Shown here piece after piece: positions 4,996 to 59,837 of a DNA stretch of 60,658 bases. Source of the stretch: Dehalococcoidales bacterium. GTDB taxonomy: Bacteria; Chloroflexota; Dehalococcoidia; Dehalococcoidales; BS750m-G39. Below the pieces are notes generated by a model that made no database searches, was not told the origin of the DNA, and saw nothing but the letters and a program-made list of their open reading frames with translations. Position 1 is the first letter of the stretch, and each line of letters opens with the position of its first letter. The stretch lies in NCBI GenBank assembly GCA_023129255.1, contig JAGMCH010000060.1, positions 1 to 60,658 on the forward strand, written 5' to 3'. A program made the translations under genes and the position numbers.

Positions 4996-5965
4996 CGCTA
5001 TTTTGGACGTCAAAGACCTGAAGATGTACTTCCCGGTTACCAGGGGCATCTTAAGGAGAAAAGTAGCTGATGTAAAAGCCGTTGACGGCGTCACCTTCAC
5101 ATTGAAGAGAGGTGAAACCCTAGGTCTGGTGGGGGAGAGCGGCTGTGGCAAAACCACCACTGGTCGCTGTGTTCTCCGACTGTATCAACCCACCGCGGGA
5201 CAGATTTTGTTTGAAGGAGAGGATATTTCGTCGCTTTCGGAGTCAAAGATGAGACACATCCGCAGCAATATGGCGCTCATCTTTCAGGACCCTTACAGTT
5301 CGCTAGACCCCCGCCAGAGCGCCGGCAGTATCGTCGGCGAGCCGCTAAAGATTCACAACTGGGTTGGCAGCCAGTCTGAATATAAGGATAGGGTGGAGCA
5401 GCTTTTTCGCCTGGTCAGCCTGGACCCCAGCATGATAGACCGATTCCCCCATGAGTTCAGTGGTGGCCAAAGGCAACGCATTGGTGTGGCGCGTGCCCTG
5501 GCTTGTGAACCTTCTTTAATAATCTGCGACGAGCCCATTTCAGCTTTGGATGTTTCCATACAAGCCCAGATAATCAACCTGCTAGAGGAATTACAGGAAG
5601 GGATAAAGGGGCTGACCTATCTCTTCATCGCCCATGACCTTTCGGTGGTGAGACATATAAGCGATCGGGTGGCGGTGATGTATCTGGGCCGCATAGTGGA
5701 AATCACTAAATCAAGAACGCTATACGAGAACCCCTTGCATCCGTACACTAAAGCGCTGCTTTCCGCAGTGCCCATAGCTGACCCCTTTGTGGAGGAAAAG
5801 CGTGAGCGCATTATCCTGAAGGGAGAGGTGCCCACCCCGTTAAACCCGCCGTCCGGCTGTAGTTTCCATCCTCGCTGCTTCATGGCCGTGCCGGAATGCA
5901 GCCAGGTGATACCACCGCTCCGCAACGTTGGTGATGGTCACCAAGTAGCCTGCATCAGGGTTTAA
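4976..5965 (+). CDS. ABC transporter ATP-binding protein (DppF/OppF-like)
   Basis: Walker [10 protein letters not shown], signature FSGGQRQR, Walker [10 protein letters not shown]. Start placed at in-frame GTG 4976 after GAGGAGAGG. The longest ORF (ATG 4928) would overlap the upstream gene by 68 nt. Confidence 0.88.
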
Positions 5966-24531: not shown

Positions 24532-24612
24532 ATTTAGGGTAACCTCTCCCCCTGACCCCCTCCCCTTATCAAGGGGAGGGGGAACTTTTTATGGAAAAGG
24601 GAGCTTCAGCGC
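24532..24612 (-). repeat. GC-rich palindromic repeat unit (reverse orientation, copy R1)
   Basis: ATTTAGGGTAACCTCTCCCCCTGA followed by CCCCCTCCCCTT-atc-AAGGGGAGGGGG (24556-24582) and then AACTTTTT. It is the reverse complement of the 28391-28441 unit and can act as a + strand terminator for 22894..24531. Confidence 0.8.
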
Positions 24613-24663
24613 TGTATAATTAGGTCAGAGAGAACCGTCGGCAAATCCTATAAGGAGAAGATT

Positions 24664-25224: not shown

Positions 25225-25322
25225 ATTTATAGGTAATCCCACCCCCTGACCCCCTCCCCTTGATAAGGGGAGGGGGAATTTTTTAATAAAAAAGGGGGCT
25301 TACGCCCCCTCTTGGACTCTCT
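25224..25322 (-). repeat. GC-rich two-hairpin repeat unit (reverse orientation, copy R2)
   Basis: CCCCCTCCCCTT-gat-AAGGGGAGGGGG (25250-25276) plus a T-run, then AGGGGGC-ttac-GCCCCCT (25293-25310). It is the reverse complement of the consensus seen at 28351-28441. Confidence 0.85.
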
Positions 25323-25335
25323 TCTTCCCCCCGAT

Positions 25336-25922: not shown

Positions 25923-25950
25923 TTGACACCCCTTACTTTAGTAGTATAAT
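25923..25950 (+). promoter_or_regulatory. Consensus sigma70 promoter pointing antisense into abiV
   Basis: TTGACA (25923-25928), 16-nt spacer, TATAAT (25945-25950). No + strand ORF with an RBS lies downstream. Confidence 0.4.
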
Positions 25951-25986
25951 CCGCCCCCTCTTAAACTCTCTTCCATTTAATCTCAA

Positions 25987-28197: not shown

Positions 28198-28225
28198 AAT
28201 ATTGTTACTCCCCCGTTTTTAACCT

Positions 28226-28441
28226 GTGTCTTGCTTCCCACCCTCCCACCCAATAGAGGCTCCGCCTCTCTTCAATTCTCTTAATTTTTCTTCCCCCCGC
28301 CCTCATAAGCTGCGCTTCTAAAACTTTCTGCCCTGCCCCCCGTTTTAATTGGGGAGTTTAAGAGGGGCGAAGCCCCTCTTTTTAATAATCCTCCCCCTCC
28401 CTTGATAAGGGAGGGGGATACAGGGGGAGGGTTCCCTAAAT
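28226..28441 (+). repeat. Composite multi-hairpin GC-rich repeat (C-rich/G4 module plus two-hairpin module), copy F1
   Basis: Contains CTTCCCACCCTCCCACCC, AGAGGCTCCGCCTCT and a second TTTTTCTTCCCCCCGCCCT module. Then GGGGAGTTTAAGAGGGGCGAAGCCCCTCTT (28351-28380) and CCTCCCCCTCCCTTGATAAGGGAGGGGGATACAGGGGGAGGGTTCCCTAAAT (28390-28441). Confidence 0.85.
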
Positions 28442-28444
28442 TCA

Positions 28445-28822
28445 CTATTTAGTGACGGTTTGTCCGATGCCGATGCCGAGCGGGATGGCGATATCCTTGA
28501 GGACATTGCCTATAGCCTCCTTCAGCCCCTTCCTCTGCTCTTTGCTGATGTTGTATCTGGTCCTGACCAGTCTCTCCAGGGCATTGGTCATCTGCAGAAT
28601 GAGCTGGATATTCTCCGGGTCATTCTGCAGCAGAGACTTTATCTTAACCCGAAGTAGGGCAATCTCATCATCAAAGCCCTCAACGCCAGAGGCTAGTTCA
28701 AAATCTAGCTGTTCCGCTTCGTCCAGCACTTTAGAGTAGAAGCCGTGTTTACGAGCGTTCTGATTGCCCTTTGGGGCGCCTCTTTTTCGCTTTACCTTTT
28801 CCGCCATCCGGTCTATCTCCAT
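28445..28822 (-). CDS. Putative terminase small subunit
   Basis: Basic N-terminus KRKRGAPKGNQNARKHGFYS, a motif seen in small terminase-like phage proteins, and position just upstream of terL. The start may be ATG 28807 (GGAGA RBS). Confidence 0.5.
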   Translation of the reverse strand: MEIDRMAEKVKRKRGAPKGNQNARKHGFYSKVLDEAEQLDFELASGVEGFDDEIALLRVKIKSLLQNDPENIQLILQMTNALERLVRTRYNISKEQRKGLKEAIGNVLKDIAIPLGIGIGQTVTK

Positions 28823-29030
28823 TCTTCAGTAGCCTGGCAGTAGCCAAGACGATGGTATGGGCGGCCAGGTCCCACCGTTTAGTCTCCACGGCCAGTCGCA
28901 GCAGTCTCATCGCCTCCCCCTTTCTGCGTATTTATAATAGCACATATGTTCTAATATGACCATAAGCAGTTGTCATGTTTTACCGGGGGTGAGCTGGTTC
29001 AGATTGCACCCCACCCCACAGCTACTTTAG

Positions 29031-29250
29031 GTTTTTCTTCCCACCCTCCCACCCTATAGGGGCTTTGCCCTTAACCCCCTGCTTTCAGGGGTGTTTCAGA
29101 GGGACATAGTCCTTTCTAAAATCTTTTCCCTCTTGAGGGAGACAAACATGAAAATGGAGTTTAAGAGGGGCTGACGCCCCTCTTTTTAAATATCCTCCCC
29201 CTTCCCCTTGTCAAGGGGAAGGGGGATACAGGGGGATAGGGTTCCCAAAT
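29031..29250 (+). repeat. Composite multi-hairpin GC-rich repeat, copy F2
   Basis: Contains TTTTTCTTCCCACCCTCCCACCC, GGGGCTTTGCCC, CCCCCTGCTTTCAGGGG and AGAGGGACATAGTCCTTTCT. Then GGAGTTTAAGAGGGGCTGACGCCCCTCTT and CCTCCCCCTTCCCCTTGTCAAGGGGAAGGGGGATACAGGGGGATAGGGTTCCCAAAT. Confidence 0.85.
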
Positions 29251-29298
29251 GAATTGATATTATGGTATAGCCGTTATAGAATAGGCTGGAAGTGAGAA

Positions 29299-30460: not shown

Positions 30461-30821
30461 GGTCAAGTAAACCGGGTGACCGCTGTGGTAGCTTGCTATT
30501 ACAGAGGAAAGTCCGAGCTCCACCGGGCAGGATGCTGGGTAACGCCCAGGAGGGGTGACCCTACGGAAAGTGCCACAGAAACACACCGCCCTTCAGCCGA
30601 AGGGTAAGGGTGAAATGGTGAGGTAAGAGCTCACCAGCGGCTGGATGACTGGTCGGCTGGGTAAACCCCATCCGGAGCAAGACCAAATAGAGGGACATAG
30701 GGACGCCCGGCCTGTCCCCGGGTTGGTCGCTTGATCCTTCCGGTAACGGAAGGGCTAGATAGATGGTCACCGCCCTTCACTTGTGAAGGATACAGAACTC
30801 GGCTTACAGGTTTACTTGACC
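30461..30821 (+). ncRNA. rnpB: RNase P RNA, bacterial type A
   Basis: P1 pairing of GGTCAAGTAAACC (30461-30473) with GGTTTACTTGACC (30809-30821). Universal motifs GAGGAAAGTCCGAGCTCCAC, ACAGAAACACACCGCC, GGTAAGGGTGAAATGGTG, GTAAGAGCTCACCAG, GGTAAACCCCATCCGGAGCAAGACCAAATAG and ACAGAACTCGGCTTACAG. Confidence 0.95.
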
Positions 30822-30911
30822 TTTTCACCACAATTTCTTCCTCTCCCAGCTTGGAGTTGAGGAAAGGGGAGTAACCGGCGGCTTTTAAGCATAATTAGGG
30901 CTAAAAATATA

Positions 30912-34637: not shown

Positions 34638-34748
34638 CTTATGCCATAAACAGTTTAGCAGATTAAAGCTGATGGCAACAACTAAAGTCATCTTTCAATT
34701 TATATCTTTCCCCACCCGCCGCCCTTAAGGAGGGGGGATAAAAGGAAG

Positions 34749-34880
34749 AGATTAAGAGGGACGAAGTCCCCCAGAAATAGCCTGCCTTGGAAATGGGGAG
34801 TTTAAGAGGGGGCGAAGCCCCTCTTCTAAAAAAACCTTCCCCCTTCCCCTTGAGGGGAAGGGGGATACAGGGGGATGGGG
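34749..34880 (+). repeat. GC-rich two-hairpin repeat (copy F3) preceded by a degenerate partial copy
   Basis: Degenerate GAGATTAAGAGGGACGAAGTCCCCC, then GGGGAGTTTAAGAGGGGGCGAAGCCCCTCTT and CCTTCCCCCTTCCCCTTGAGGGGAAGGGGGATACAGGGGGATGGGG. Confidence 0.8.
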
Positions 34881-35530
34881 TGAATAATAATAAAAATGTC
34901 TTCGACCAGATAGCCCCGAGCTGGTATAACTTCAGGCACTGGTCTATATTCCGCAGCGAGCTGGAAGCGCTGGCTCGTCGCTGGCAAAAAGGCAAACTGC
35001 TAAACATTGGCTGTGCCCATGGACCTGACTTCTTGCCTTTCAGGCAGGGCTTTGAGCTATATGGGGTGGACTTCTCGGCTGAGATGCTGAAGTTCGCTGA
35101 AAAATACTCCCAAAAATTTGGCTTTGTTGTCAATCTGACGCTGGCTGATGTCTGCCACCTTCCCTATCCCGACCAGACCTTTGACTGGGCAATATCGGTG
35201 GCTACCTATCACCATCTCAGGGGTGGGGAGCAGCCAGCGGCACTAAGTGAGCTCAAGCGGGTATTAAAGCCGGGCGGTGAAGCCTTTATCACGGTGTGGA
35301 ATCGGTGGCAGCCCAGGTTCTGGCTCAAACCGAAGGAGGTAGCTGTCCCTTGGCGAAAAAGGGGCAAGACCCTCTATCGCTACTACTACCTATTTTCTTA
35401 CCCCGAGCTGGGGAAGCTGGTGAAGAGGGCAGGCTTTGAGGTGCTTAAATCATTCCCCGAAAGCGCCTACCGCTTCCCGCTAAAGTTTTTTTCCCGAAAT
35501 ATTTGCCTGCTGGCGAAAAAGAGTGCTTAG
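34880..35530 (+). CDS. Class I SAM-dependent methyltransferase, Trm9-like
   Basis: VFDQIAPSWYNFRHW, LLNIGCAHG (motif I), LPYPDQTFDWAISVATYHHL and LKRVLKPGGEAFITVWN parallel the Trm9/ALKBH8 methyltransferase motifs. Start set at GTG 34880 because the longer ORF translates the repeat element. Confidence 0.65.
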   Translation: MNNNKNVFDQIAPSWYNFRHWSIFRSELEALARRWQKGKLLNIGCAHGPDFLPFRQGFELYGVDFSAEMLKFAEKYSQKFGFVVNLTLADVCHLPYPDQTFDWAISVATYHHLRGGEQPAALSELKRVLKPGGEAFITVWNRWQPRFWLKPKEVAVPWRKRGKTLYRYYYLFSYPELGKLVKRAGFEVLKSFPESAYRFPLKFFSRNICLLAKKSA

Positions 35531-35757: not shown

Positions 35758-35840
35758 TTTTCCCTCCTTTTGGCCTTATTCTATACCAGTATTATAACAC
35801 TCTTGTCAAGTAATTGGCTTCTAGATTTTATTTTGTCAAC

Positions 35841-35925
35841 CTCACCTCCTTAATCCCCCTCTCCTTACCAAGGAGAGGGGGAGAAATAAAAAAGAGGGGG
35901 CGAAACCCCCTCTTAAAACTACTTC
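35841..35925 (-). repeat. GC-rich two-hairpin repeat (reverse orientation, copy R3)
   Basis: CCCCCTCTCCTT-acc-AAGGAGAGGGGG, then AGAGGGGGCGAAACCCCCTCT followed by TAAAAC. Confidence 0.8.
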
Positions 35926-35947: not shown

Positions 35948-36454
35948 TTAGCTTTTGGAGGTCCTGGTGTAGATGACAAGCTCGCTGCGGTGGAAGCCTA
36001 GCCTCTGGAAATAGTTCTGCAGTTCCCAGTGACGCTCGTCAATGACGGCGCGCACCGTGTTAACCCCCCTGGCGTGGCAGCGCTCGGCTAGGGCGTTGAC
36101 TAATCTGCCGGCAATACCCTGCCGTTGGTAGTCGGGGTCAACAATTATCATGTGGATGATGCCCACTTCATCAACTGGTATGCCGGCGAAGGCTAACCGG
36201 CCCCAGATAAAGCCAATGACCTGCCCATCGGCTTCAGCGACAAAACTCAAGTCGAGCGGACCTCCGGGGTTAGTCGAGGCTACCTCTTCGTAGGTCATGG
36301 TGCCTCTATAGCTAAGACGGCTCCGCTTGGTGCCGGGTATCTTTTCCTCCCTGATTTTGTCGTAAATAGCTAAAACGGCACTAATATCTCTACTCTCCAT
36401 GGGTCTGATATTTACCTCGCCTTTCTCTACATTCACCATAATAATCACCCCCAC
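35948..36454 (-). CDS. GNAT family N-acetyltransferase
   Basis: Acetyl-CoA motif VDPDYQRQGIAGRLV. Paralogue of 37082..37537. Confidence 0.85.
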   Translation of the reverse strand: MGVIIMVNVEKGEVNIRPMESRDISAVLAIYDKIREEKIPGTKRSRLSYRGTMTYEEVASTNPGGPLDLSFVAEADGQVIGFIWGRLAFAGIPVDEVGIIHMIIVDPDYQRQGIAGRLVNALAERCHARGVNTVRAVIDERHWELQNYFQRLGFHRSELVIYTRTSKS

Positions 36455-39173: not shown

Positions 39174-39422
39174 GCCGAATTCTTATCCTTGGAAAAGTTA
39201 TGATATTAAAATCATTGTAGCATATTCCCGTTCTTGATGGCATCTAAGACCTGTGGATTCTTTGAGCCCCCCCGTTCCCAACGTAACCTTTTCTTCCCTC
39301 CCCCCCGCCCTAGACTGGTAGCGTTTTTAAACAACCTCAACCTATCTTTTCACTGCTTCCTTCGTTATACTATATGCACAGGATAACGCCATAATTGCCG
39401 TAAAGCGGTAGGGGGTTGTCAG

Positions 39423-42425: not shown

Positions 42426-42449
42426 CCAGCCCGGTAAATGCCTGATTCT

Positions 42450-42487
42450 AGGGGGAGCCCTTCAAAGAAGGGCTCCCCCTATTTTAT
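42450..42487 (+). terminator. Rho-independent terminator
   Basis: AGGGGGAGCCC-ttcaaagaa-GGGCTCCCCCT followed by ATTTTAT. Abuts the convergent queH stop. Confidence 0.7.
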
Positions 42488-43021: not shown

Positions 43022-43410
43022 TTTTTACCACTGTATTTCCGGCTATAGTAGGTATATAGAATATTATAGAGTATCAGTATGGTGCATACCGAATAGGCCA
43101 GCGTAAGGCCGGCCGGTTCTAGATCGGGCGAACCACCTTGGCTCATAGCTATTAAGGTGGCTCCGGAAATGGCCATAAAGATGACAACGATTTCAACGGT
43201 GCGCCTCGATGCTTGGTTGACTATACTACGCGCTCTCTCATCTTCAGTAAACGCTTTTACCCGTCTCTGGCATAGGTATAGTATGATGGCTCCAGCAAGA
43301 AATGTTGGTATCGGTACCAGTACATTGCCGGTTGTTACCGACCAGCCCACCAGGGCAGCAACAATCATGGTAATTACTACCATCCACAGCCTGTATGTTT
43401 TAATACTCAT
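43018..43410 (-). CDS. DUF2178-like membrane protein
   Basis: Four TM helices. Follows a small XRE regulator, which is the usual pairing. 4-nt overlap with queH. Confidence 0.6.
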   Translation of the reverse strand: MSIKTYRLWMVVITMIVAALVGWSVTTGNVLVPIPTFLAGAIILYLCQRRVKAFTEDERARSIVNQASRRTVEIVVIFMAISGATLIAMSQGGSPDLEPAGLTLAYSVCTILILYNILYTYYSRKYSGKK

Positions 43411-43422
43411 CGCTTTCCTCCC

Positions 43423-43635
43423 TTAATCCTCGTATTGAAAGACCTCTTCCAGAGGTACGCCGAAAGCTCGGGCAATCTTGAAAGCCAGCTCGATAGACGG
43501 CACGTATTTCCCCTGCTCCAGAGCGATTATAGTCTGCCGGGTGCAGCCGGCGCGGCTGGCCAGCTCTTCCTGTGTCATTTCATCGTGGTCGAAGCGCAGC
43601 CTCCGGATGCGGTTGTTTATCCTGGCGTTAGCCAT
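43423..43635 (-). CDS. XRE-family helix-turn-helix transcriptional regulator (70 aa)
   Basis: MTQEELASRAGCTRQTIIALEQGKYVPS is a Cro/C1-type HTH. Confidence 0.85.
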   Translation of the reverse strand: MANARINNRIRRLRFDHDEMTQEELASRAGCTRQTIIALEQGKYVPSIELAFKIARAFGVPLEEVFQYED

Positions 43636-43720
43636 ATCTCCCCGTATCTAAGTAATCTGAACAATACATATTGTAATATATGTAAAACAAAATGTCAAGC
43701 GATTTTTACATTATTTGTTA

Positions 43721-43948
43721 AAAATTTTTCTTCTCCCCCAACCCCCCCCCGCTGTTTTAAAAAATCTCTTTTCCCCCACCCACCCGCCCTCGGGAGCTTT
43801 GCCCTTAATACCTTTTGCTATTGGGGTGTCTGGAAGGGCAAAGTCCCCAAATATATTACGGGGAGTCTTAGAGGGGCGAAGCCCCTCTTATACAACTAAT
43901 CCCCCCTCCCTTGTAAGGGAGGGGGATAAAGGGGGAGGGTTGCTAAGT
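43721..43948 (+). repeat. Composite multi-hairpin GC-rich repeat, copy F4
   Basis: Contains TTTTTCTTCTCCCCCAACCCCCCCCCGCTG, CCCCCACCCACCCGCCC, GGGAGCTTTGCCC and GGAAGGGCAAAGTCCCC. Then GGGGAGTCTTAGAGGGGCGAAGCCCCTCTT and CCCCCCTCCCTTGTAAGGGAGGGGGATAAAGGGGGAGGGTTGCTAAGT. Collinear with copy F2. Confidence 0.85.
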
Positions 43949-43977
43949 GAATGTTTAAAGGGGGTGAGGTAGATAAA

Positions 43978-45006
43978 TTATCCCTCCCACAGGGTTGGCT
44001 GAGGAGGTTTTTCTTTGTTATAGGGCAGACCCAGGTGCTGATAGGCTAGCTGGGTGGCTAATCTACCACGAGGGGTGCGCTCCAGAAAGCCAAGTTGAAG
44101 CAGGTAAGGCTCATAGACATCCATGATAGTATCTGCCTCCTCGCTGATAGAGGCAGCGATGGTATCCAGTCCCACCGGTCCCCCGTTAAACTTGTCAATG
44201 ATGGTATGTAACACCTTGTGGTCTATCTCATCCAGACCTATATGGTCGACTTCAAGCTTGGATAGTGCCTCAACGGCTACCGGTTGGGTGGCTACACCCT
44301 CTGCCTTCACCTGAGCATAGTCCCTGACCCGCTTGAGCAGTCGGTTAGCCACCCGGGGTGTACCCCTGGCCCGGCGGGCTATCTCCTTTAGCCCTCCCCC
44401 TTCCGCTTTTACCTGGAGAATTTTGGCTGAGCGAATGAGGATTGTCTCTATAGCTGCCTGGTCATAGAAATCGAGGCGGTAAACGGCGCCGAATCGGTCT
44501 CTTAGGGGTGGGCTGAGCAGGGCAAAGCGGGTGGTGGCACCAATCAGGGTAAAGGCAGGCAGGTTTAGCCGCAGGCTTCGGGCACCGGGACCCTTGCCGA
44601 TAATGATATCCAGGGCGAAATCCTCCATAGCCGGGTATAGCACCTCTTCTACCGCCCGATTTAAGCGGTGGATTTCATCAATAAACAGTATATCGAGGTT
44701 GCGCAAATTGGTTAGGATAGCTGCCAGGTCTCCGGTGCGCTCCACCGCCGGACCTGAGGTAATCCTGATGTTGACCCCCATCTCAGCGGCAATGATATAA
44801 GCCAGGGTGGTTTTGCCCAGGCCGGGGGGACCGTAGAGCAGGACATGGTCCAATGCCTCTTCCCTGCCTTTAGCCGCAGTGATAGCTATCTTCAGGTTTT
44901 CCTTAATCTTGTCCTGCCCGATGAAGTCATCAAAGCATCGGGGTCGGAGGCTAGTATCAAGGGTTACATCCTCGGCTCCGGGCTTACCTGAAATAATGCG
45001 GTCTAT
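43978..45006 (-). CDS. ruvB: Holliday junction branch-migration helicase RuvB; conserved N-terminus requires a non-canonical start (ATA 45004-45006)
   Basis: Walker [10 protein letters not shown], Walker B LFIDEIH, and sensor and winged-helix regions. The frame stays open upstream of the track start (TTG 44853) and reads (I)[56 protein letters not shown], the canonical RuvB N-terminus. There is no ATG/GTG/TTG between the upstream TAA and 44853. GGAGGG lies 6 nt before ATA. Confidence 0.85.
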
Positions 45007-45121: not shown

Positions 45122-48100
45122 TTAGCTGGTTGTCTCTTCCTCTTTATTCTCTTCACCGGCGCTCAAGCTCGGCGTCTCCTCGGCTACCAGGCTTGGCGGT
45201 TCCTCGGAGACCGGGCTGTAAGCTGGAATCAGCTTACCGATGATTACATTTTCCTTAAGCCCAACCAGCCTATCAATCTCGCCTTTGATCGCAGCTTCGG
45301 TGAGCACCCTGGTGGTCTCCTGGAAGGAAGCTGCTGCCAGCCAGCTCTCAGTATTCAGCGAGGCTCTGGTTATGCCCATAAGCACCGAGTGGGCGGTGGC
45401 TGGCTCACCTCCTTCAGCCAGTACCTTGGCGTTAATATCCTCGTAACGGAATATGCCTAGCAGCTCCCCGGGCACCAGCTCGGTGTCACCCGAGGAGTCA
45501 ATGCGGACCTTAGACAGCATGCGATGGACGATAACTTCAATGTGTTTATCGTTGATATTCACTCCCTGGGAGCGGTATACCTTTTGCACCTCATCTACCA
45601 GGTATTGCTGGGCTACCTCCTTACCTAGAATATGCAGGATATCCTGTGGGTTGATAGAACCCTCGGTAAGTCGCTGTCCTGCCTTTATGTGCTCTCCACT
45701 TTGAACACGAATATGGGCACTAGCCGGAACCGCGTATTCCTGCTGCTGCTCCTCCATGTAACTGATAACTAGCTGGACACCTTTAATAGTTACCTCCCCA
45801 GCGACACGTGCCAGGATAGGTTTGGTTTCAGTAGTTAGGGCTTTTGACTTTTTTGACGAAGCTTTAGCCTTAGGTGGGCTGGCTAACTCGGCGCCTATAT
45901 CCACCCATTGACCGTCCTTCACCATAACCTGCCACTTTGGTGGCAGCGGATACTCATCATGGTACACCTCAGAGCTGGTAACCTTTATCACCTTCCCCTC
46001 CTCATCCTGAACCACCTCAGCCACCCCGTCTATTTCTGAGATAATGGCTTGACCCTTGGGTGGTCTGGCCTCAAAGAGTTCTTCCACTCTGGGCAGACCG
46101 CTGGTGATGTCAAGCCCTACCACGCCGCCGGTGTGGAAGGTACGTAGAGTTAACTGCGTACCTGGCTCACCGATGCTCTGGGCGGCAATTATGCCTACGG
46201 CGGTGTTGGGGTCAACCAGATGCCCCCGGGCAAGGTCTCGGCCATAGCACTGCTGGCAGGCACCGTGCCTGGAGTGGCAGCTAAGGGGAGAGCGGACATG
46301 AACCTTGGTTAACCCGGCAGCAATAATTTCCTTTGCCTTCTGCTCGTCAATCTCCTCATTTCGGTCAACGATGACTTTCTTGGTCTTGGGTTTAACTATT
46401 TTGCTGGCCGCCAACCGACCGATTATTCGCTCAGCCAGTGGTGGTAGCAGTTCCCCTTCTTGCGGTTTAGATATCCATGTGCCATCGGTAGTGCCGCAGT
46501 CCTCTTCGCGAGTGATAACATCCTGGGCAACATCAATGAGGCGTCGGGTGAGATAGCCGCTATCCGATGTCCTCAGGGCGGTATCGGCTAGTCCCTTTCT
46601 GGCACCATGGGTGGAGATAAAGTATTCCAGAACGCTCAAGCCTTCACGCAGACCTGACTTGATAGGGAAGTCTATTATTTTGCCCGAGGGGTCAGTCATC
46701 AACCCCCGCATACCTGCCATCTGTCTGATCTGGGAAATATTACCCTTTGCCCCCGATGTTGCCATCATGTAAATGCCACCATAGCGGTCAAGAGTCTGGG
46801 AGATGATATCAGTAATCTTGTCGGTAGTTTCCATCCATACCCCTATGGTGTTATTATACTTTTCGTCCTCGGTGATTAAGCCACGGTTATACTGGTTTTC
46901 AATAATGGACACCCTCTCCCCGGCCTCTTCCAGTAGCTTGGGCTTGCTCTGAGGAACTTGAATATCGCTCATAGCAATGGTAGTTCCCGATTTAGTGGCA
47001 TAGCGGAAGCCTAGCTGCTTGATGTTGTCCACTACTTTAGCGGTATCCTCGTTACTTAGCAGCTTATAGCAATCGGTTACTATTTGCTTTAAGCTTGACT
47101 TATCAATGGCTTTATTGTAGAAGCCCAGCTCGGGGGGCAAAATATCATTAAAGATGATACGACCCACGCTGGTCTTAATCTTCTGCCCGTTTTCTTGTTG
47201 CTTTCTGACCTCAATCTCGGCTCTGAGGTCAATATATCCCAGTTCATAGATGAGCTTTGCCTCTTCAAAGCTACCGAAGATTGTGCCCTCACCCTTGGCT
47301 CCGGGTATGATAGTAGTCAGGTAATAGCAGCCAAGAACCATGTCCAGGGTTGGGGTTATTATTGGCTCACCGGAGCTTGGCAGCAGCATATTGTGGGTGC
47401 TGAGCATGATTTCCCTGGCTCCCTTAACCGCAGCTTTAGACAGGGGAACATGAACTGCCATCTGGTCACCATCAAAATCGGCATTGAAAGCAGCACATAC
47501 TAGGGGATGTATCTGGATGGCACTGCCACCAATGAGCACTGGCTCAAAGGCTTGGATGCTAAGCCGATGCAGGGTGGGAGCCCGGTTAAGCAACACCGGC
47601 TGCTCCTTGACTACCTCCTCAAGTATGTCATATACCTCTGGCTTATTTCTCTCCACCAGCCGGCGGGCACTCTTGATGTTGTGGGTAAGCCCTTGCTCCA
47701 TCAGACGGCGCATAATAAAGGGCTTAAATAGCTCCACCGCCATCCGTCTTGGTAGTCCGCACTGGTGAAGCTTAAGCTCGGGGCCAACCACGATAACCGA
47801 GCGTCCACTATAGTCAACCCGCTTGCCCAGCAGGTTCTGGCGAAAGCGCCCTTGTTTGCCCCGCAGCATGTCTGAGAGTGACTTAAGTTTATGATTACCG
47901 CTAATCGAGATGGCTCGTCCTCGCCTGCCATTATCGATAAGGGAATCGACCGCTTCCTGGAGCATTCTTTTCTCGTTGCGGATGATAACCGCTGGCGCCT
48001 CTATCTCCAGCAGGTGACGCAACCGGTTATTGCGGTTAATGACTCGCCGATAGAGGTCATTGAGGTCACTGGTGGCGAATCTACCTCCGTCTAGCTGAAC

Positions 48101-49024
48101 CATAGGTCTAAGGTCGGGAGGTAGGACAGGCAGCACAGTTACAACCATCCACTCTGGCTTATTGCCGCTGCGGCGAAAAGCCTCCACTACCTGTAGCTGC
48201 TTAGCCGCCTTTCGGCGGCGTTGACCTGAAGCAGAGCGGGTTTCTCGGAGTAGCTCATTACGCATTTCGTTAAGGTTGACGTCCTTAAGTAACTGCAGAA
48301 TAGCCTCAGCCCCCATCTCGGCGCTGAAAACCTGACCATATCTTTGTTTCAGCTCATAATATTGACTCTCGGTGAGCAGGGCACATTTCCGCAGGTCCTT
48401 TAGCTGTTCCACATTGGCAGAAAGCTTCTCCTTAAGCTGCGTTTCTTCCTCGGAGAAGTCTTGCCGCATTCGGTTTATCTCCTCTACTTTTGCCCCCTCC
48501 TTCTCCTTCTCGGTAACTTTAGCCTCCAGCTCGCTCTGTTTTTCCTCTATTTGCTGCAGGCAGTTCTCCTCCAGTTGCTTGATTGCTTCCTGGCACGCCT
48601 CCTCGTCTATGGAGGTGATGATGTAATGAGAGAAGTAGAGGACACGCTCCAGGCTCCGCGGTGATAGGTCAAGCAGCAGTCCCAAGCGGCTGGGTATCCC
48701 CTTGGCAAACCAGATATGGCTCACCGGGCAGGCCAGCTCAATGTGCCCCATGCGCTCTCTTCTCACCTTGGCCCGGGCGACCTCAACGCCACACTTATCG
48801 CAGATGACCCCCTTGTAGCGTATCCTCTTGTACTTACCACAATAACATTCGAAGTCCTTGGTGGGACCAAAGATTCTCTCACAGAAAAGCCCGTCTCTTT
48901 CTGGCTTCAGGGTGCGGTAGTTAACCGTCTCTGGCTTGGTTACCTCGCCGTAGGACCAGCTCCTAATCTGCTCCGGTGAAGCCAGTGAGATACGAATAGC
49001 ATCAAAATCGTTGACTTCAAGCAT
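45122..49024 (-). CDS. rpoC: DNA-directed RNA polymerase subunit beta'
   Basis: Zn-binding [23 protein letters not shown], catalytic NADFDGDQM, trigger-loop and bridge-helix regions. 1300 aa. Confidence 0.98.
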
Positions 49025-52000
49025 TTTTCTCTTCTACCTTTTCCTCTGGTTCAGTTTGACTCTCGGCAGCCTCAGGCTCTGATTCCAGTTTAGGGGTTTC
49101 AGTAACCTCCTTGGTAGCCTCAGGCTTTGCTTCCAGTTTAGAGGTTTCAGCAACCTCCTTGGCAGCCTCAGGCTCTGCTTCTAGTTTAGGGGTTTCAGCA
49201 ACCTCCTTGGCAGCCTCAGGCTCTGCTTCCAGTTTAGGAGTTTCAGCAGTTTCCTTGGCAGCCTCAGGCTCTGCTTCCAGTTTAGAGGTTTCAGCAACCT
49301 CCTTGGCAGCTTCAGGCTCTGCTTCCAGTTTAGGGGTTTCAGCAACCTCCTTGGTAGCCTCAGGCTCTGCCTCTAGTTTAGAGGTTTCAGCAACCTCCTC
49401 GGCGGTTGCTCTTTCCTCTTCGTTAATTACCTCAATAGCCAGCCCCAGGCTTTGCAGTTCCTTGACCAGAACCTTGAATGATTCTGGCACGCCGGGTTGG
49501 AGAATATCTTCATTCTTAACTATAGCCTCATAGGTTTTGGCTCTGCCGGTGACGTCGTCTGACTTAATGGTCAGGATTTCTTGAAGGTTATGGGCGGCGC
49601 CGTAGGCTTCCAGTGCCCATACCTCCATCTCACCAAAGCGTTGACCACCAAATTGAGCCTTACCGCCCAGGGGCTGCTGGGTAATCAGGGAGTAGGGTCC
49701 GGTGGAGCGGGCGTGAACCTTATCCTCAACCAGGTGGATTAACTTCATCATATAGATGTTGCCCACCGTTACCGGCTGGTCAAAGGGTTGGCCGCTTCGC
49801 CCGTCGCGGAGAACAACCTTGCCTATGATAGGTGGGGGCAGGTTCCGCTCCGTTTTTACCCTCTCCACTGCTTCCTCTAGTTGCTGTTGGTCAAGGTCTC
49901 GGCTGTCTATGCCCAGGTCTTCAAGCCACAGGCGCAGGCAAACATCCTTCGCCTCCCCCGGGCAGTCATCACTGAACACCCTATCCCCATTGTAGCCATG
50001 ACTTTCAAGCCACTCATTAGCCTTCTCCATTTTAAGGGTGGGGTGCTCATTAGAGGGGCTAAGGTCAACGGCGCCACTTCTTTGAGCTATCCAGGCTCTG
50101 GCTAGAGCATCCTCAATGGCAGCATCACTGGCACCATCAAAAACAGGGGTGAGCACCTTGAACCCCAGCATCTGGGCAGCCCATCCCAGGTGGGTTTCCA
50201 GAACTTGGCCCAGATTCATCCGTGATGGGACACCTATGGGGTTGAGGATAATATCTACTGGTGTACCATCGGGAAGGAAGGGCATATCCTCAGCCGGCGC
50301 TATCAGGGAGATGACCCCCTTATTGCCATGCCGCCCGGCTAACTTATCCCCCACCGAGATTCTTCGCTTCTGGGCAATCCAGGCCTGAACCCACTGGTTA
50401 ACCCCAGCCGGCAGGTCATCACCACTATCACGGGAGAAGACCCTGACATTAATCACCTTGCCCCACTCACCATGAGGCACCCGCAGGGAGGTATCCTTCA
50501 CCTCCCGGGCTTTCTCACCGAAGATAGCCCTAAGCAGTTTCTCCTCAGCCGATAGCTCGGTCTCCCCCTTGGGGGTGATCTTACCCACCAGTATATCGTC
50601 CGGACCCACCTCAGCGCCAATGCGAACAATGCCAGTTTCATCAAGCTCGCGCAGGCTTTCCTCACCGACATTGGGTATATCCCGGGTAATCTCTTCCGGT
50701 CCCAGCTTGGTATCGCGGGCTTCTACCTCATGCTTCTCAATGTGAATGGAGGCGAACTTGTCCTGCTCCACCAGACGGTTACCGATGATAATAGCATCCT
50801 CAAAGTTATAGCCTTCCCAGCTCATAAAGGCACAGGTTACATTCTGTCCCAGAGCCAGCTCCCCGTATTCGGTAGATGAGCTATCGGCTAGAACCTGCCC
50901 CGGCTCCACCCGGTTGCCCTTGCCTACTATAGGCTGCTGGCTGATACACGTCCCCTGATTGGTGCGGACAAATTTCATTAGTGGGTATACGTCCTTATCG
51001 CCGTTATCCCTGGTGACCACAATATGGGAGCTGGTAACCGAGTTGACTACCCCGGCGTTTTGGGCAAAGATGACCTGCCCGCTGTACTTGGCGACTTCTA
51101 TTTCCATGCCGGTAGCTACCACCGGCGCCTCAGGGCGGAGCAGGGGTACCGCTTGCCGCTGCATATTAGACCCCATCAGGGCACGATTGGCATCATTATG
51201 CTCAAGGAAGGGAATCAGGGCGGTGGCAACGCTAACTATCTGCTTGGGTGATACGTCAATGAACTCTATTCTGTCACGCCCTTCCAGTAGATAGCGGTCA
51301 CCTAATCTGGCCTCAACCCTTTCGTCAACAAATTGGTTCTTCTCATCAAGGCGGGCATTAGCCTGGGCAATAATATATTCATCCTCTTTATCTGCCGTCA
51401 TATAGACGACCTCATCAGAGACAAAGGGCACCACCTTTATCTTTCTGGGCGGTAATTTAGATAGCTTGGTGGCAAGCTTGGGGGTAATGGTAGTCCTGGC
51501 TTTGGCTACGGCATTACCCTTGTCATTAAGCACTGCCTTCTGGATTGTCCTGCCCTCCAGCTCGTCAGAGGTATTGTTCACCTCAGCGATAACTCTGCGG
51601 TATGGTGTCTCAATGAAGCCATATGGGTTAATCTGTCCATAGGTAGCTAGAGAGCCGATAAGACCAATGTTAGGTCCCTCTGGTGTCTCAATGGGGCAGA
51701 TTCTACCGTAGTGGGAGAAGTGGACATCGCGGACCTCAAACCCAGCCCGCTCTCGTGATAGCCCCCCCGGCCCCATTGCCGATAGGCGGCGCTTATGGGT
51801 TAGCTCAGCCAGTGGGTTGGTCTGGTCCATAAATTGTGATAGCTGTGAGCCGCCGAAGAACTCCCTGACCGCAGCCACTACCGGGCGAATGTTGACCAGA
51901 ACACTGGGGGTAACGACATCAGCACTGATAATACTCATCCGCTCCCTGACCACTCGCTGCAGGCGCAGTAACCCAATGCGAAACTGGTTTTGAATTAGCT

Positions 52001-54330: not shown

Positions 54331-54412
54331 TGGGGAAGGGGGGATTTGAACCCCCACGCCTTGCGGCACATGATCCTAAATCATGCTCGTCTGCCAATTC
54401 CGACACTTCCCC
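54331..54412 (-). tRNA. tRNA-Leu (anticodon UAG)
   Basis: Minus strand reads GGGGAAGTGTCGGAATTGGCAGACGAGCATGATTTAGGATCATGTGCCGCAAGGCGTGGGGGTTCAAATCCCCCCTTCCCCA. The 7-bp acceptor stem pairs GGGGAAG with CTTCCCC. Anticodon stem is CATGA/TCATG with loop TTTAGGA. Long variable arm and T-loop GGGGGTTCAAATCCCCC. Confidence 0.93.
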
Positions 54413-57546: not shown

Positions 57547-57690
57547 TTTTTCTTCCCATACCCTCCCGCCCTCAAAGGCATAGCCTTTAAAAATCTCTTT
57601 CCCCACTCCCCAGAGGAGAGAGATTAGCCACCTTATCCCCCATAAAGGAGGGTAAAGAGGTCAGACCTTTGTAGGGTGGGAAAAACAACA
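57547..57690. repeat. Degenerate member of the GC-rich repeat family
   Basis: Contains TTTTTCTTCCCATACCCTCCCGCCCT, AAAGGCATAGCCTTT, TATCCCCCATAAAGGAGGG and AGAGGTCAGACCTTTG. Confidence 0.6.
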
Positions 57691-59570: not shown

Positions 59571-59780
59571 TATAAAAATCCCCTCGTCTGCAGAACAAGG
59601 GGATTCCCATCATCTATAATCTGCCCCCCTTCTCCGCGGAGGCGACACCAATTAGGGGCTAGTGTTCTGACTTATGAGGTCTAAAACCTCAATCACAGCA
59701 GGCGGGACTGTGGCGGATTTGCACCGCACTTGCCTTCCATTTAAGCCCTCGCTCGTGCAAGGGCACCCCTGTAGCTCTAT
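59571..59780 (-). ncRNA. Cobalamin (B12) riboswitch with terminator-type expression platform
   Basis: Minus strand reads ..AGGGGTGCCC..GAGGGCTTAAATGGAAGGCAAGTGCGGTGCAAATCCGCCACAGTCCCGCCTGCTGTGA..AGTCAGAACACTAGCCCCT. These are the conserved core and a B12-box-like GCCTGCTG. The terminator AATCCCC..GGGGATT plus TTTATAT follows (59571-59608). Confidence 0.85.
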
Positions 59781-59837
59781 TCAGTTTTACTAGAGCATAT
59801 CAAAAAGGCGAGCCAAAGTCAACTTAACTGGTTTGAT

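Follow-up and report, generated by a model that had tools for sequence, protein, structure and literature searches.

Between the genes of a 60,658-nt stretch of DNA from an uncultured Dehalococcoidales bacterium (GenBank assembly GCA_023129255.1, contig JAGMCH010000060.1, positions 1 to 60,658; the whole stretch is hereafter called the window) lie several copies of a GC-rich, multi-hairpin repeat, of which the one at 28226-28441 is the starting point of this study. This segment, composed of a C-rich head module and a core, occupies what is referred to below as the TerL site and is followed by a minus-strand open reading frame (ORF) at 28445-28822; a second composite copy sits in the next gap, between that ORF and a plus-strand CT398-like gene, and further copies adjoin genes for, among others, an Ig-domain protein, NYN and DUF2283 proteins, a methyltransferase and RuvB. 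A preliminary description, based on the letters of the window alone, had seen in these copies a dispersed family resembling the repetitive extragenic palindromes (REPs) and bacterial interspersed mosaic elements (BIMEs), and had left it to be decided whether it represents miniature inverted-repeat transposable elements (MITEs), a REP system with a cognate transposase or a structured RNA. As argued below, 28226-28441 is probably a single composite copy of a mosaic DNA repeat that is dispersed in genomes of uncultured Dehalococcoidales and in which each hairpin is flanked by a third block matching it in the manner of an intrastrand triplex.

The copies in the window were sought by a direct-repeat search together with an nhmmer profile built from seven full copies, and all seven full copies listed in the preliminary description were recovered, four on the plus and three on the minus strand. 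That the family would extend beyond the window is borne out by the genome to which the contig belongs, a metagenome-assembled genome (MAG) of 1.31 Mb in 104 contigs with 51% G+C and a completeness of 90.8%: it contains 128 non-overlapping nhmmer matches, 109 of them strong (E<1e-6), which amounts to ~1 copy per 12 kb, or about 83 units per Mb, with no enrichment seen at the contig ends of this genome (2 of 109 copies). Set against ORF-based gene calls (1237 genes, 87.5% coding), the core appears as an intergenic, non-coding element of ~95 nt that occupies ~100 intergenic gaps. Its parts follow one another on one strand in the order G-rich third strand, hairpin A (together, module A), A/T spacer, hairpin B, G-rich third strand (together, module B, the last block being its tail). 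The notion of a dispersed, mosaic, intergenic family of GC-rich multi-hairpin elements, BIME-like in its modular make-up, is upheld, and the label REP/BIME-like applies only loosely, to the extent that the repeat is mosaic and intergenic.

Single-strand Watson-Crick folding reproduces both hairpins as previously described (DNA z-scores of -3.9 to -6.0), and compensatory substitutions are evident in the stem of hairpin A, where six of the eight pairs change on both sides and 98.3% of cells are paired. In the same fold, the G-run on the 5' side and the tail on the 3' side pair marginally or not at all. What, then, are these flanks? The preliminary description overlooked the mirror-repeat design of the element: each hairpin adjoins a G-rich segment that is the mirror image, not the complement, of its purine arm, and both the 'tail' and the 5' GGGGAGTT mirror the purine arms in this way. 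When the three blocks are scored by the purine-motif code (triplets C-G*G, T-A*A and T-A*T), module B yields at least eight valid triplets in 86 of 109 copies, and 12-13 in 50 of them. In mirror register, A faces A or T at 363 of 366 positions and G faces G at 668 of 688, i.e. 97.8% are valid, compared with at most 57% after a slide of 1-3 nt. The purine-arm core exists in 15 variants, including GGGAGGGGG, GGAGAGGGGG, GGGGAAGGGG, GGGAAGGGGG, GGGAGAGGGGG and GGGGAGAGGG, and the tail follows each of them, with a mean of 0.27 mismatches between a purine arm and its own tail versus 2.28 between it and the tails of other subtypes. Module A shows the same behaviour in 60 copies (99.5% valid in mirror register, at most 67% when slid); taken alone it is weak evidence, its stems being short (6-8 nt). 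When the genome was scanned de novo for perfect G/C-rich motifs of three blocks with a stem length of 9 nt or more, 64 were returned, as opposed to none from shuffled genomes, and 62 of the 64 fall within this repeat family. The alternative that the tail pairs with the pyrimidine arm by Watson-Crick rules was rejected, as a by-hand check of the subtype sequences revealed that it needs mismatches exactly where the mirror code fits.

Three-block designs of this sort have been grouped into four classes (I-IV) of intrastrand triplex motifs, or ITxF (Holder 2015; PMC4666352). In class II, a 5' pyrimidine arm is followed by a purine arm and a 3' reverse-Hoogsteen purine strand; class I runs from a 5' reverse-Hoogsteen strand through a purine arm to a 3' pyrimidine arm; and stems are limited to 6-15 nt, loops to 1-6 nt and mismatched triplets to at most one, with C-G*G, T-A*A or T-A*T allowed (PMC4666352). 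Module B corresponds to class II, its loop 2 measuring 3-5 nt and its loop 1 mostly 2-6 nt (up to 8), with no mismatch in 63 and one mismatch in 23 of the 86 scoring copies, and module A corresponds to class I, with 6-10 valid triplets in 60 copies. Because 200 of the 363 valid A positions of module B have a T opposite them, the code fits the antiparallel purine motif on the G-rich strand and not the pyrimidine motif on the complementary strand, in which the complement of an A would be required there. On which nucleic acid would the constraint operate? The three-way match is equally intact in every orientation of the copies relative to neighbouring genes, and purine-motif triplexes are, according to Semerad & Maher (1994) as cited in PMC4666352, excluded from RNA; because of these two points, we infer that the constraint may act on single-stranded DNA. 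A structured RNA, one of the options initially considered, is disfavoured on the same grounds and by the lack of any Rfam family matching the repeat in a scan of the window, where the only Rfam matches are a class A RNase P RNA (30464-30822), a tRNA (54331-54412) and a cobalamin riboswitch (59640-59783).

The motif known in Escherichia coli as TMECO, BoxC or PIT has the consensus CCCTCNCCC N3-6 GGGNGAGGG N3 GGGNGAGGG and 23 copies in strain MG1655; oligonucleotides of the form CCCTCTCCC..GGGAGAGGG..GGGTGAGGG adopt a triplex in vitro according to circular dichroism and nuclear magnetic resonance (NMR), and TMECO loci are unusually variable (PMC4666352). Its likeness to the present repeat is extensive: in both, one strand carries a pyrimidine arm together with a purine arm and, in mirror register, a third strand of purines, and both follow the same triplet code, down to GAGAG matched by GTGAG, are intergenic and multi-copy with copy numbers that vary among close relatives, and reside at rearrangement-prone loci without an associated transposase. 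There are differences too. The stems are 10-13 nt here rather than 9; a class I (hairpin A) and a class II module stand on the same strand, unlike BoxC with its inverted pairs on opposite strands; the density is ~83 units per Mb, as opposed to 23 copies in the MG1655 genome; the A/T spacer gives rise to terminator-like signals, whereas PIT elements had no terminator activity; and the host phylum, Chloroflexota, goes unmentioned in the main text of the PMC4666352 survey. The TMECO/BoxC consensus matched neither strand of the genome under study (0 matches). Judged by sequence, the repeat falls outside the TMECO family itself and represents a variant of the BoxC/PIT kind.

Several other known systems resemble the repeat in part. 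With the REP/BIME elements of Enterobacteria and Pseudomonas, which are served by a REP-associated tyrosine transposase (RAYT, or TnpA-REP), it shares short GC-rich intergenic palindromes, mosaic clusters, a position mostly after genes and a subdivision into subfamilies, yet no RAYT was found alongside it, and it possesses a third mirror-symmetric block that REPs lack and carries no GTAG/CGTC tag, its consensus beginning with (A/T)n-GGGG(A/T)GT. The purine arm and tail form a purine-tract mirror repeat with a 3-5 nt spacer, as in H-DNA; however, H-DNA needs two blocks in duplex, whereas here a third block on the same strand, the pyrimidine arm, co-varies, which suits single-strand folding. MITEs that have terminator activity, such as Correia/NEMIS in Neisseria and RUP/BOX in Streptococcus, are likewise non-coding elements of ~100-200 nt that are present or absent between strains and affect neighbouring transcription units, but neither terminal inverted repeats, nor a duplication of TA or another target, nor a matching transposase were seen here.

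The features of the window, together with insertions found elsewhere in the genome, are collected in Table 1.

Table 1. Repeat modules in the window and loop 2 inserts outside it (positions are those of the window unless preceded by a contig label).
Feature	Position	Strand	Remarks
C-rich head CTTCCCACCCTCCCACCC, small hairpin AGAGGC-TCC-GCCTCT and spacer	28224..28349	+	head profile match; complement carries GGGTGGGAGGGTGGG
Full core of the TerL-site composite	28347..28442	+	repeat search and nhmmer
Third strand of module A, GGGGAGTT	28351..28358	+	mirror of purine arm AAGAGGGG; class I arrangement
Hairpin A, AAGAGGGG-CGAAG-CCCCTCTT, then T/A-rich spacer	28360..28380	+	fold, pair changes
Hairpin B, TCCCCCTCCCTT-GAT-AAGGGAGGGGGA (pyrimidine arm, loop 1, purine arm)	28392..28418	+	fold
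Third strand of module B, AGGGGGAGGGTT	28422..28433	+	mirror of hairpin B purine arm; class II; 12/12 triplets valid
Core with decayed hairpin A	24532..24620	-	begins 1 nt past stop of Ig-domain gene
Core between convergent NYN and DUF2283 genes	25226..25327	-	profile match
Second composite: head 29027-29152 (with decayed hairpin A 29088-29117) and intact C5TTC4 core 29151-29252	29027..29252	+	between two divergent promoters
Hairpin A remnant (34745-34774), then intact core (34791-34890)	34745..34890	+	between divergent Elp3-like and methyltransferase genes
Core, forward relative to minus-strand transcription	35829..35925	-	between stop of gene 35948-36454 and next gene's promoter
Third composite: head 43762-43860 and C5TC3-subtype core 43857-43950	43762..43950	+	downstream of ruvB
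Orphan third strand of another subtype, GGGGGTGAGGTAGATAAATTATCCCTC	43960..43986	+	left from older copy, intact in G007
Loop 2 inserts, own genome, outside window	C1:15254-15288, C27:18800-18834, C27:20557-20591
Loop 2 inserts, own genome, outside window	C96:25174-25208, C11:10480-10514, C44:~5922-5957

Incomplete copies were also encountered in the window. Of three degenerate copies previously proposed, that at 34749-34771 stands as a remnant of hairpin A only and that at 25950-25975 as a 16-nt fragment of the hairpin A module, while 57632-57690, though alike to the eye, falls below the profile threshold; the repeat search located remnants of the hairpin A module alone at 34745-34774 and 29088-29117. 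As for the C-rich heads, the claim of ~130 nt of collinear hairpins at three sites survives in so far as the C-rich start and the small hairpin are common to all, nothing further being so; the heads at 29027-29152 and 43762-43860 additionally share the decayed hairpin A module. Two more candidate heads, at 39283-39330 and 57547-57600, are similar by eye and score below the profile threshold. A head profile counts 78 head modules in the genome, 44 of them solo; such solo heads are often the left arm in a different mosaic element with GGGTGGGAGGGTGGG at its end. The remaining 34 lie within 120 nt of a core and, since 31 of these sit 5' of it in the same orientation, head followed by core is a preferred, non-random arrangement, yet no fixed unit. 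Pairing between tail and head, be it as something resembling terminal inverted repeats or as a competing helix, was considered and rejected, because the head sequence does not vary with the tail subtype.

A particular kind of insertion bears on the fold. A self-pairing mini-hairpin of ~38 nt, GGGTTCCCAGGAAAATCGAAGATTTTTCTGGGTGC, is placed exactly within loop 2, which joins purine arm to third strand, in six copies belonging to three subtypes of the genome, with 3 nt of the loop repeated after the insert. Its stem co-varies, and it is present in 13 of 15 genomes of the same taxonomic family (loci L321-L350); ~20 of 37 distinct mini-hairpin copies are located in loop 2, the others lying between two tail copies. 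Loop 2 tolerates the ~38-nt insert in self-pairing form only. An insert that folds upon itself keeps the purine arm and the third strand adjacent, which fits the prediction of a fold-back constraint.

How widely is the repeat distributed? A covariance model (R1), employed as a detector only and not as structural evidence, given that the RNAalifold structure of hairpin B is distorted by a ragged alignment, found it in all 24 genomes of the same family, in counts ranging from 10 to at least 106, in 12 of 16 other families of the order and in 10 of 150 genomes sampled across the phylum. It did not find the repeat in seven genomes of one family of the order (f10), six of them closed and one in 40 contigs, which we suspect to be the cultured Dehalococcoides and Dehalogenimonas; if so, this would explain the absence of the repeat from the literature, our search of which found no paper linking triplex repeats to Dehalococcoidia. 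The generic module B pattern matches genomes of many phyla as well as many IMG/VR contigs. The idea that the viral contigs carry the same family was discarded, as the 90-nt model reached only 22-28 bits on the 20 viral loci tested, which indicates other families of the same kind. The IMG/VR loci examined (L204-L283) contain solo TMECO-like motifs (CCCCCTCTCC..GGGAGAGGGGG-CTA-GGGGGTGAGG), up to six per viral locus, that belong to a different family from the Dehalococcoidales repeat; where a locus has at least two such motifs, all are on one strand in 18 of 20 viral versus 3 of 13 bacterial loci.

Comparison of orthologous sites between relatives reveals considerable turnover. The entire 29027-29252 composite is missing from G003 (GTC-GCA-ATTGAT versus GTCA-[~240 nt]-ATTGAT), where 3 nt separate the back-to-back promoters that drive ORF 28445-28822 on the minus strand and the CT398-like gene on the plus strand (window 28925-29290); in G000 and G004 a repeat composite is placed exactly between the two divergent -35 boxes, G004 having the same core with a different head. 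The 35829-35925 site, too, is empty in G003, with 29 nt instead of 149 nt. Neither target-site duplications nor terminal inverted repeats are apparent at these two empty sites, the comparison being limited to the two at ~80-85% identity, and the MITE option accordingly finds no support. At the TerL site, G000 and G003 carry different subtypes, with all three blocks differing together, and the head at 28224-28349 is replaced by a different head in G004 and by an inverted one in G003. In G004, three decayed cores are stacked 5' of an intact core. In two cases, at window 43960-43986 (versus G007) and at C44:10261 (versus G001), the resident hairpin B has given way to hairpin B plus tail from a different subtype, so that the previous tail is now an orphan 11-18 nt downstream, and such orphan tails of another subtype accompany 5 of the 86 copies.

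The copy downstream of ruvB occurs in only two (G000 and G007) of 25 genomes. There, ruvB takes its final two codons and its stop (GAG GGA TAA) from the flank of the 43960-43986 orphan; in the closest relatives without a copy, G004 and G001, the gene ends in TGG-TAA or TGG-TAG. The spacer as a whole (window 43400-43980, loci L001-L025) is a hot spot of variation: in some relatives a gene with a CCAHC motif, which by eye looks queH-like, follows directly, and in others there are unrelated genes or stacks of repeats. A further variable site lies at C44:3515-6023 of the same genome, where 2.5 kb with two genes and two direct core copies corresponds to 307 nt in G009 and to 1.2 kb with another gene in G003; the purine arm and tail of the right-hand core in G003 have been lost between a pair of GAGGG words. 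A cognate transposase for a REP system was looked for in the genome and in 40 relatives, and no Y1_Tnp (PF01797)/RAYT protein was found in the genome itself or in any of the 24 carriers of the same family; DUF559 was likewise not found in the genome. From the empty sites, the block replacements, the orphan tails, the loop 2 inserts and the lack of terminal inverted repeats, target-site duplications and RAYT proteins, we infer that copies turn over by recombining with one another or by template switching among them, often with a junction in loop 2, and not by cut-and-paste transposition.

With regard to neighbouring genes, 100 copies could be placed. Copies between co-directional genes are biased in orientation (51 forward, 17 reverse; p=4e-5), 20 copies lie between divergent and 12 between convergent genes, and neither the local GC skew nor the gene-strand bias of the region showed a relation to the strand of a copy (n=64; p=0.44 and 0.80), a weak test in a fragmented assembly. 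T-run terminator-like signals, which had been noted in either direction depending on orientation, do occur in some window copies, being flagged in five of the seven. Three consist of hairpin B, read from the tail side, with a T-run (24556-24582, 25250-25276 and 43926-43901), and each of these just follows a stop codon in the sense that would terminate the gene; in the copies at 24532-24620 and 25226-25327 it is the plus strand that reads as a terminator. Another, at 35914-35892, combines hairpin A with a T-run and is placed after a stop codon and ahead of the promoter that comes next. Across the family the T-run is modest (a mean of 4.9 T per 10 nt after hairpin A), and a role of the repeat as a bidirectional terminator or insulator would be plausible but unproven. 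Outside the family, a strong canonical terminator (15-bp stem plus TTTT) is found at 42449-42481, i.e. ordinary intrinsic terminator-like signals occur in this region outside the repeat too.

One copy interferes with gene calling, as had been pointed out: the longest-ORF call of the methyltransferase gene (34787-35530, from TTG 34787) reads through it. The start is likely the GTG at 34880, inside the repeat tail, which supplies a Shine-Dalgarno-like (SD-like) GGGGGA ahead of it. The proposal that copies bracket the cargo genes of a prophage, on the other hand, did not hold, in that ORF 28445-28822 is kept at its site in relatives without the right-hand copy; the bracketing seems to be coincidental for this reason. 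The RNase P RNA lies just after an RNase H-like gene, inside the region initially called prophage, and seven tandem 48-nt units, 75-92% alike, occupy 49014-49451 on the minus strand, within the region of a 1300-aa ORF (45122-49024).

Could the repeat be explained without a triplex? One explanation places the function in the RNA: the copies would be ordinary intrinsic terminators working in both directions, or would protect mRNA 3' ends as REPs do, and their G-rich flanks would be incidental or serve as ribosome-binding sites. The hairpin and T-run signals of five window copies, three of them right after a stop in the terminating sense, the 3:1 bias relative to transcription and the tail that overlaps the likely methyltransferase start and provides its GGGGGA would all be accommodated. 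It is nevertheless unlikely, as it gives no reason for the third block to co-vary in mirror register, the three-way match is equally intact in either orientation, the U-tract is weak in most copies, and the 20 copies between divergent genes, one of them between back-to-back -35 boxes, have nothing to terminate. Alternatively, the mirror symmetry might reflect the recognition of duplex or hairpin DNA by a host protein, such as a nucleoid-associated protein, gyrase or integration host factor (IHF), by analogy with the BIMEs of E. coli, or a nuclease or helicase that recognises structure. While the high copy number, the intergenic placement, the retention of the family in 24 of 24 genomes and the BIME-like modular architecture would suit a binding site, arm sequences are free to vary (15 cores) provided that the three blocks match, which speaks for a fold and not for a sequence-specific site; no candidate protein was identified, and we hold this explanation to be distinctly improbable.

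A non-autonomous transposable element, either a MITE or a REP mobilised by RAYT/IS200-type enzymes with the hairpins as transposase recognition sites, would account for the presence or absence of copies between relatives, the subfamily structure suggestive of master copies, the nested or adjacent copies and the 3-nt repeat flanking the loop 2 mini-hairpin. That heads and cores combine independently and that, as described above, Y1_Tnp is missing from the genome and all 24 carriers, DUF559 from the genome, and terminal inverted repeats and target duplications from the two empty sites, makes it very improbable. Hardly probable at all is a family of G-quadruplex elements built from four G-tracts supplied by purine arm and tail. 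A canonical motif (G3+N1-7 x4) can indeed be drawn through purine arm and tail in 42 of the 86 copies, and head modules bear GGGTGGGAGGGTGGG on the other strand; but half of the copies, including the commonest subtype (GGAGAGGGGG / GGGGGTGAGG), lack four G3 tracts, NMR favoured triplex over quadruplex for TMECO (PMC4666352), and a quadruplex predicts neither the position-by-position mirror matching of A with A/T nor a competing C-rich arm.

The best-supported reading is therefore that of a Dehalococcoidales variant of the BoxC/PIT intrastrand triplex kind, with a class I and a class II module in a doubled unit and with terminator-like hairpins coupled to it, which we consider probable, no more firmly than that. 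A number of observations weigh against it. In vivo footprinting with dimethyl sulfate detected no TMECO triplex in E. coli, and PIT elements displayed neither promoter nor terminator activity (PMC4666352); triplex formation in cells likewise has the status of a prediction here. Copies of one subtype share descent, and the number of independent events is ~7-15 rather than 86; many copies may also be young, and an intact match could then reflect recency or conversion from a few masters rather than selection acting on every single copy. The 3:1 orientation bias hints at selection or insertion bias, the U-tract after hairpin A is modest, and a 91%-complete MAG leaves room for a mobilising enzyme. 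Finally, in the G001 ortholog of the 34745-34890 copy, where a compensatory change in hairpin B has turned C-G into T-A, the third strand has not followed.

If the triplex reading is adopted, the following scheme can be envisaged. Whenever the G-rich strand is exposed in single-stranded form, be it by replication or repair or because it is the non-template strand in a transcription bubble, each hairpin would form and its third strand would lie in the major groove of the hairpin, giving rise to G*G-C, A*A-T and T*A-T triplets; selection would preserve this fold. Copies would arise and be overwritten by recombination or template switching, with other copies as donors, rather than being moved by an element-specific transposase. 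Once placed, their hairpins and A/T spacer might act as terminators or insulators both ways, and copies would persist where they are harmless or useful, i.e. after stops, between convergent genes and between divergent promoters. A bolder variant, to which we assign only a small chance, makes the fold itself the engine: a polymerase stalling at the folded G-rich strand would switch template and overwrite or add blocks of hairpin B plus tail, with loop 2 as the preferred junction, so that the repeat could spread and become homogenised without a transposase, and the same fold on the non-template strand would stop transcription either way.

What would these repeats mean for the organisms that carry them? 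Intrastrand triplex repeats have been known since the 1990s without an assigned function, and here they attain a very high density (~83 double units per Mb) in genomes of ~1-1.8 Mb that have little spare DNA. Their many subtypes provide natural co-variation evidence for a three-stranded fold of a kind that a single consensus such as TMECO cannot give, and the terminator-like hairpins, the block replacements and the self-pairing loop 2 insert translate into testable predictions about the role of that fold. At a practical level, the repeats lead gene callers astray (the start of the methyltransferase is an example) and are signposts to the variable hot spots in these genomes. Should the fold prove to be the engine of their spread, they would represent a structure-driven, self-propagating terminator or insulator across a whole family of uncultured Dehalococcoidales.

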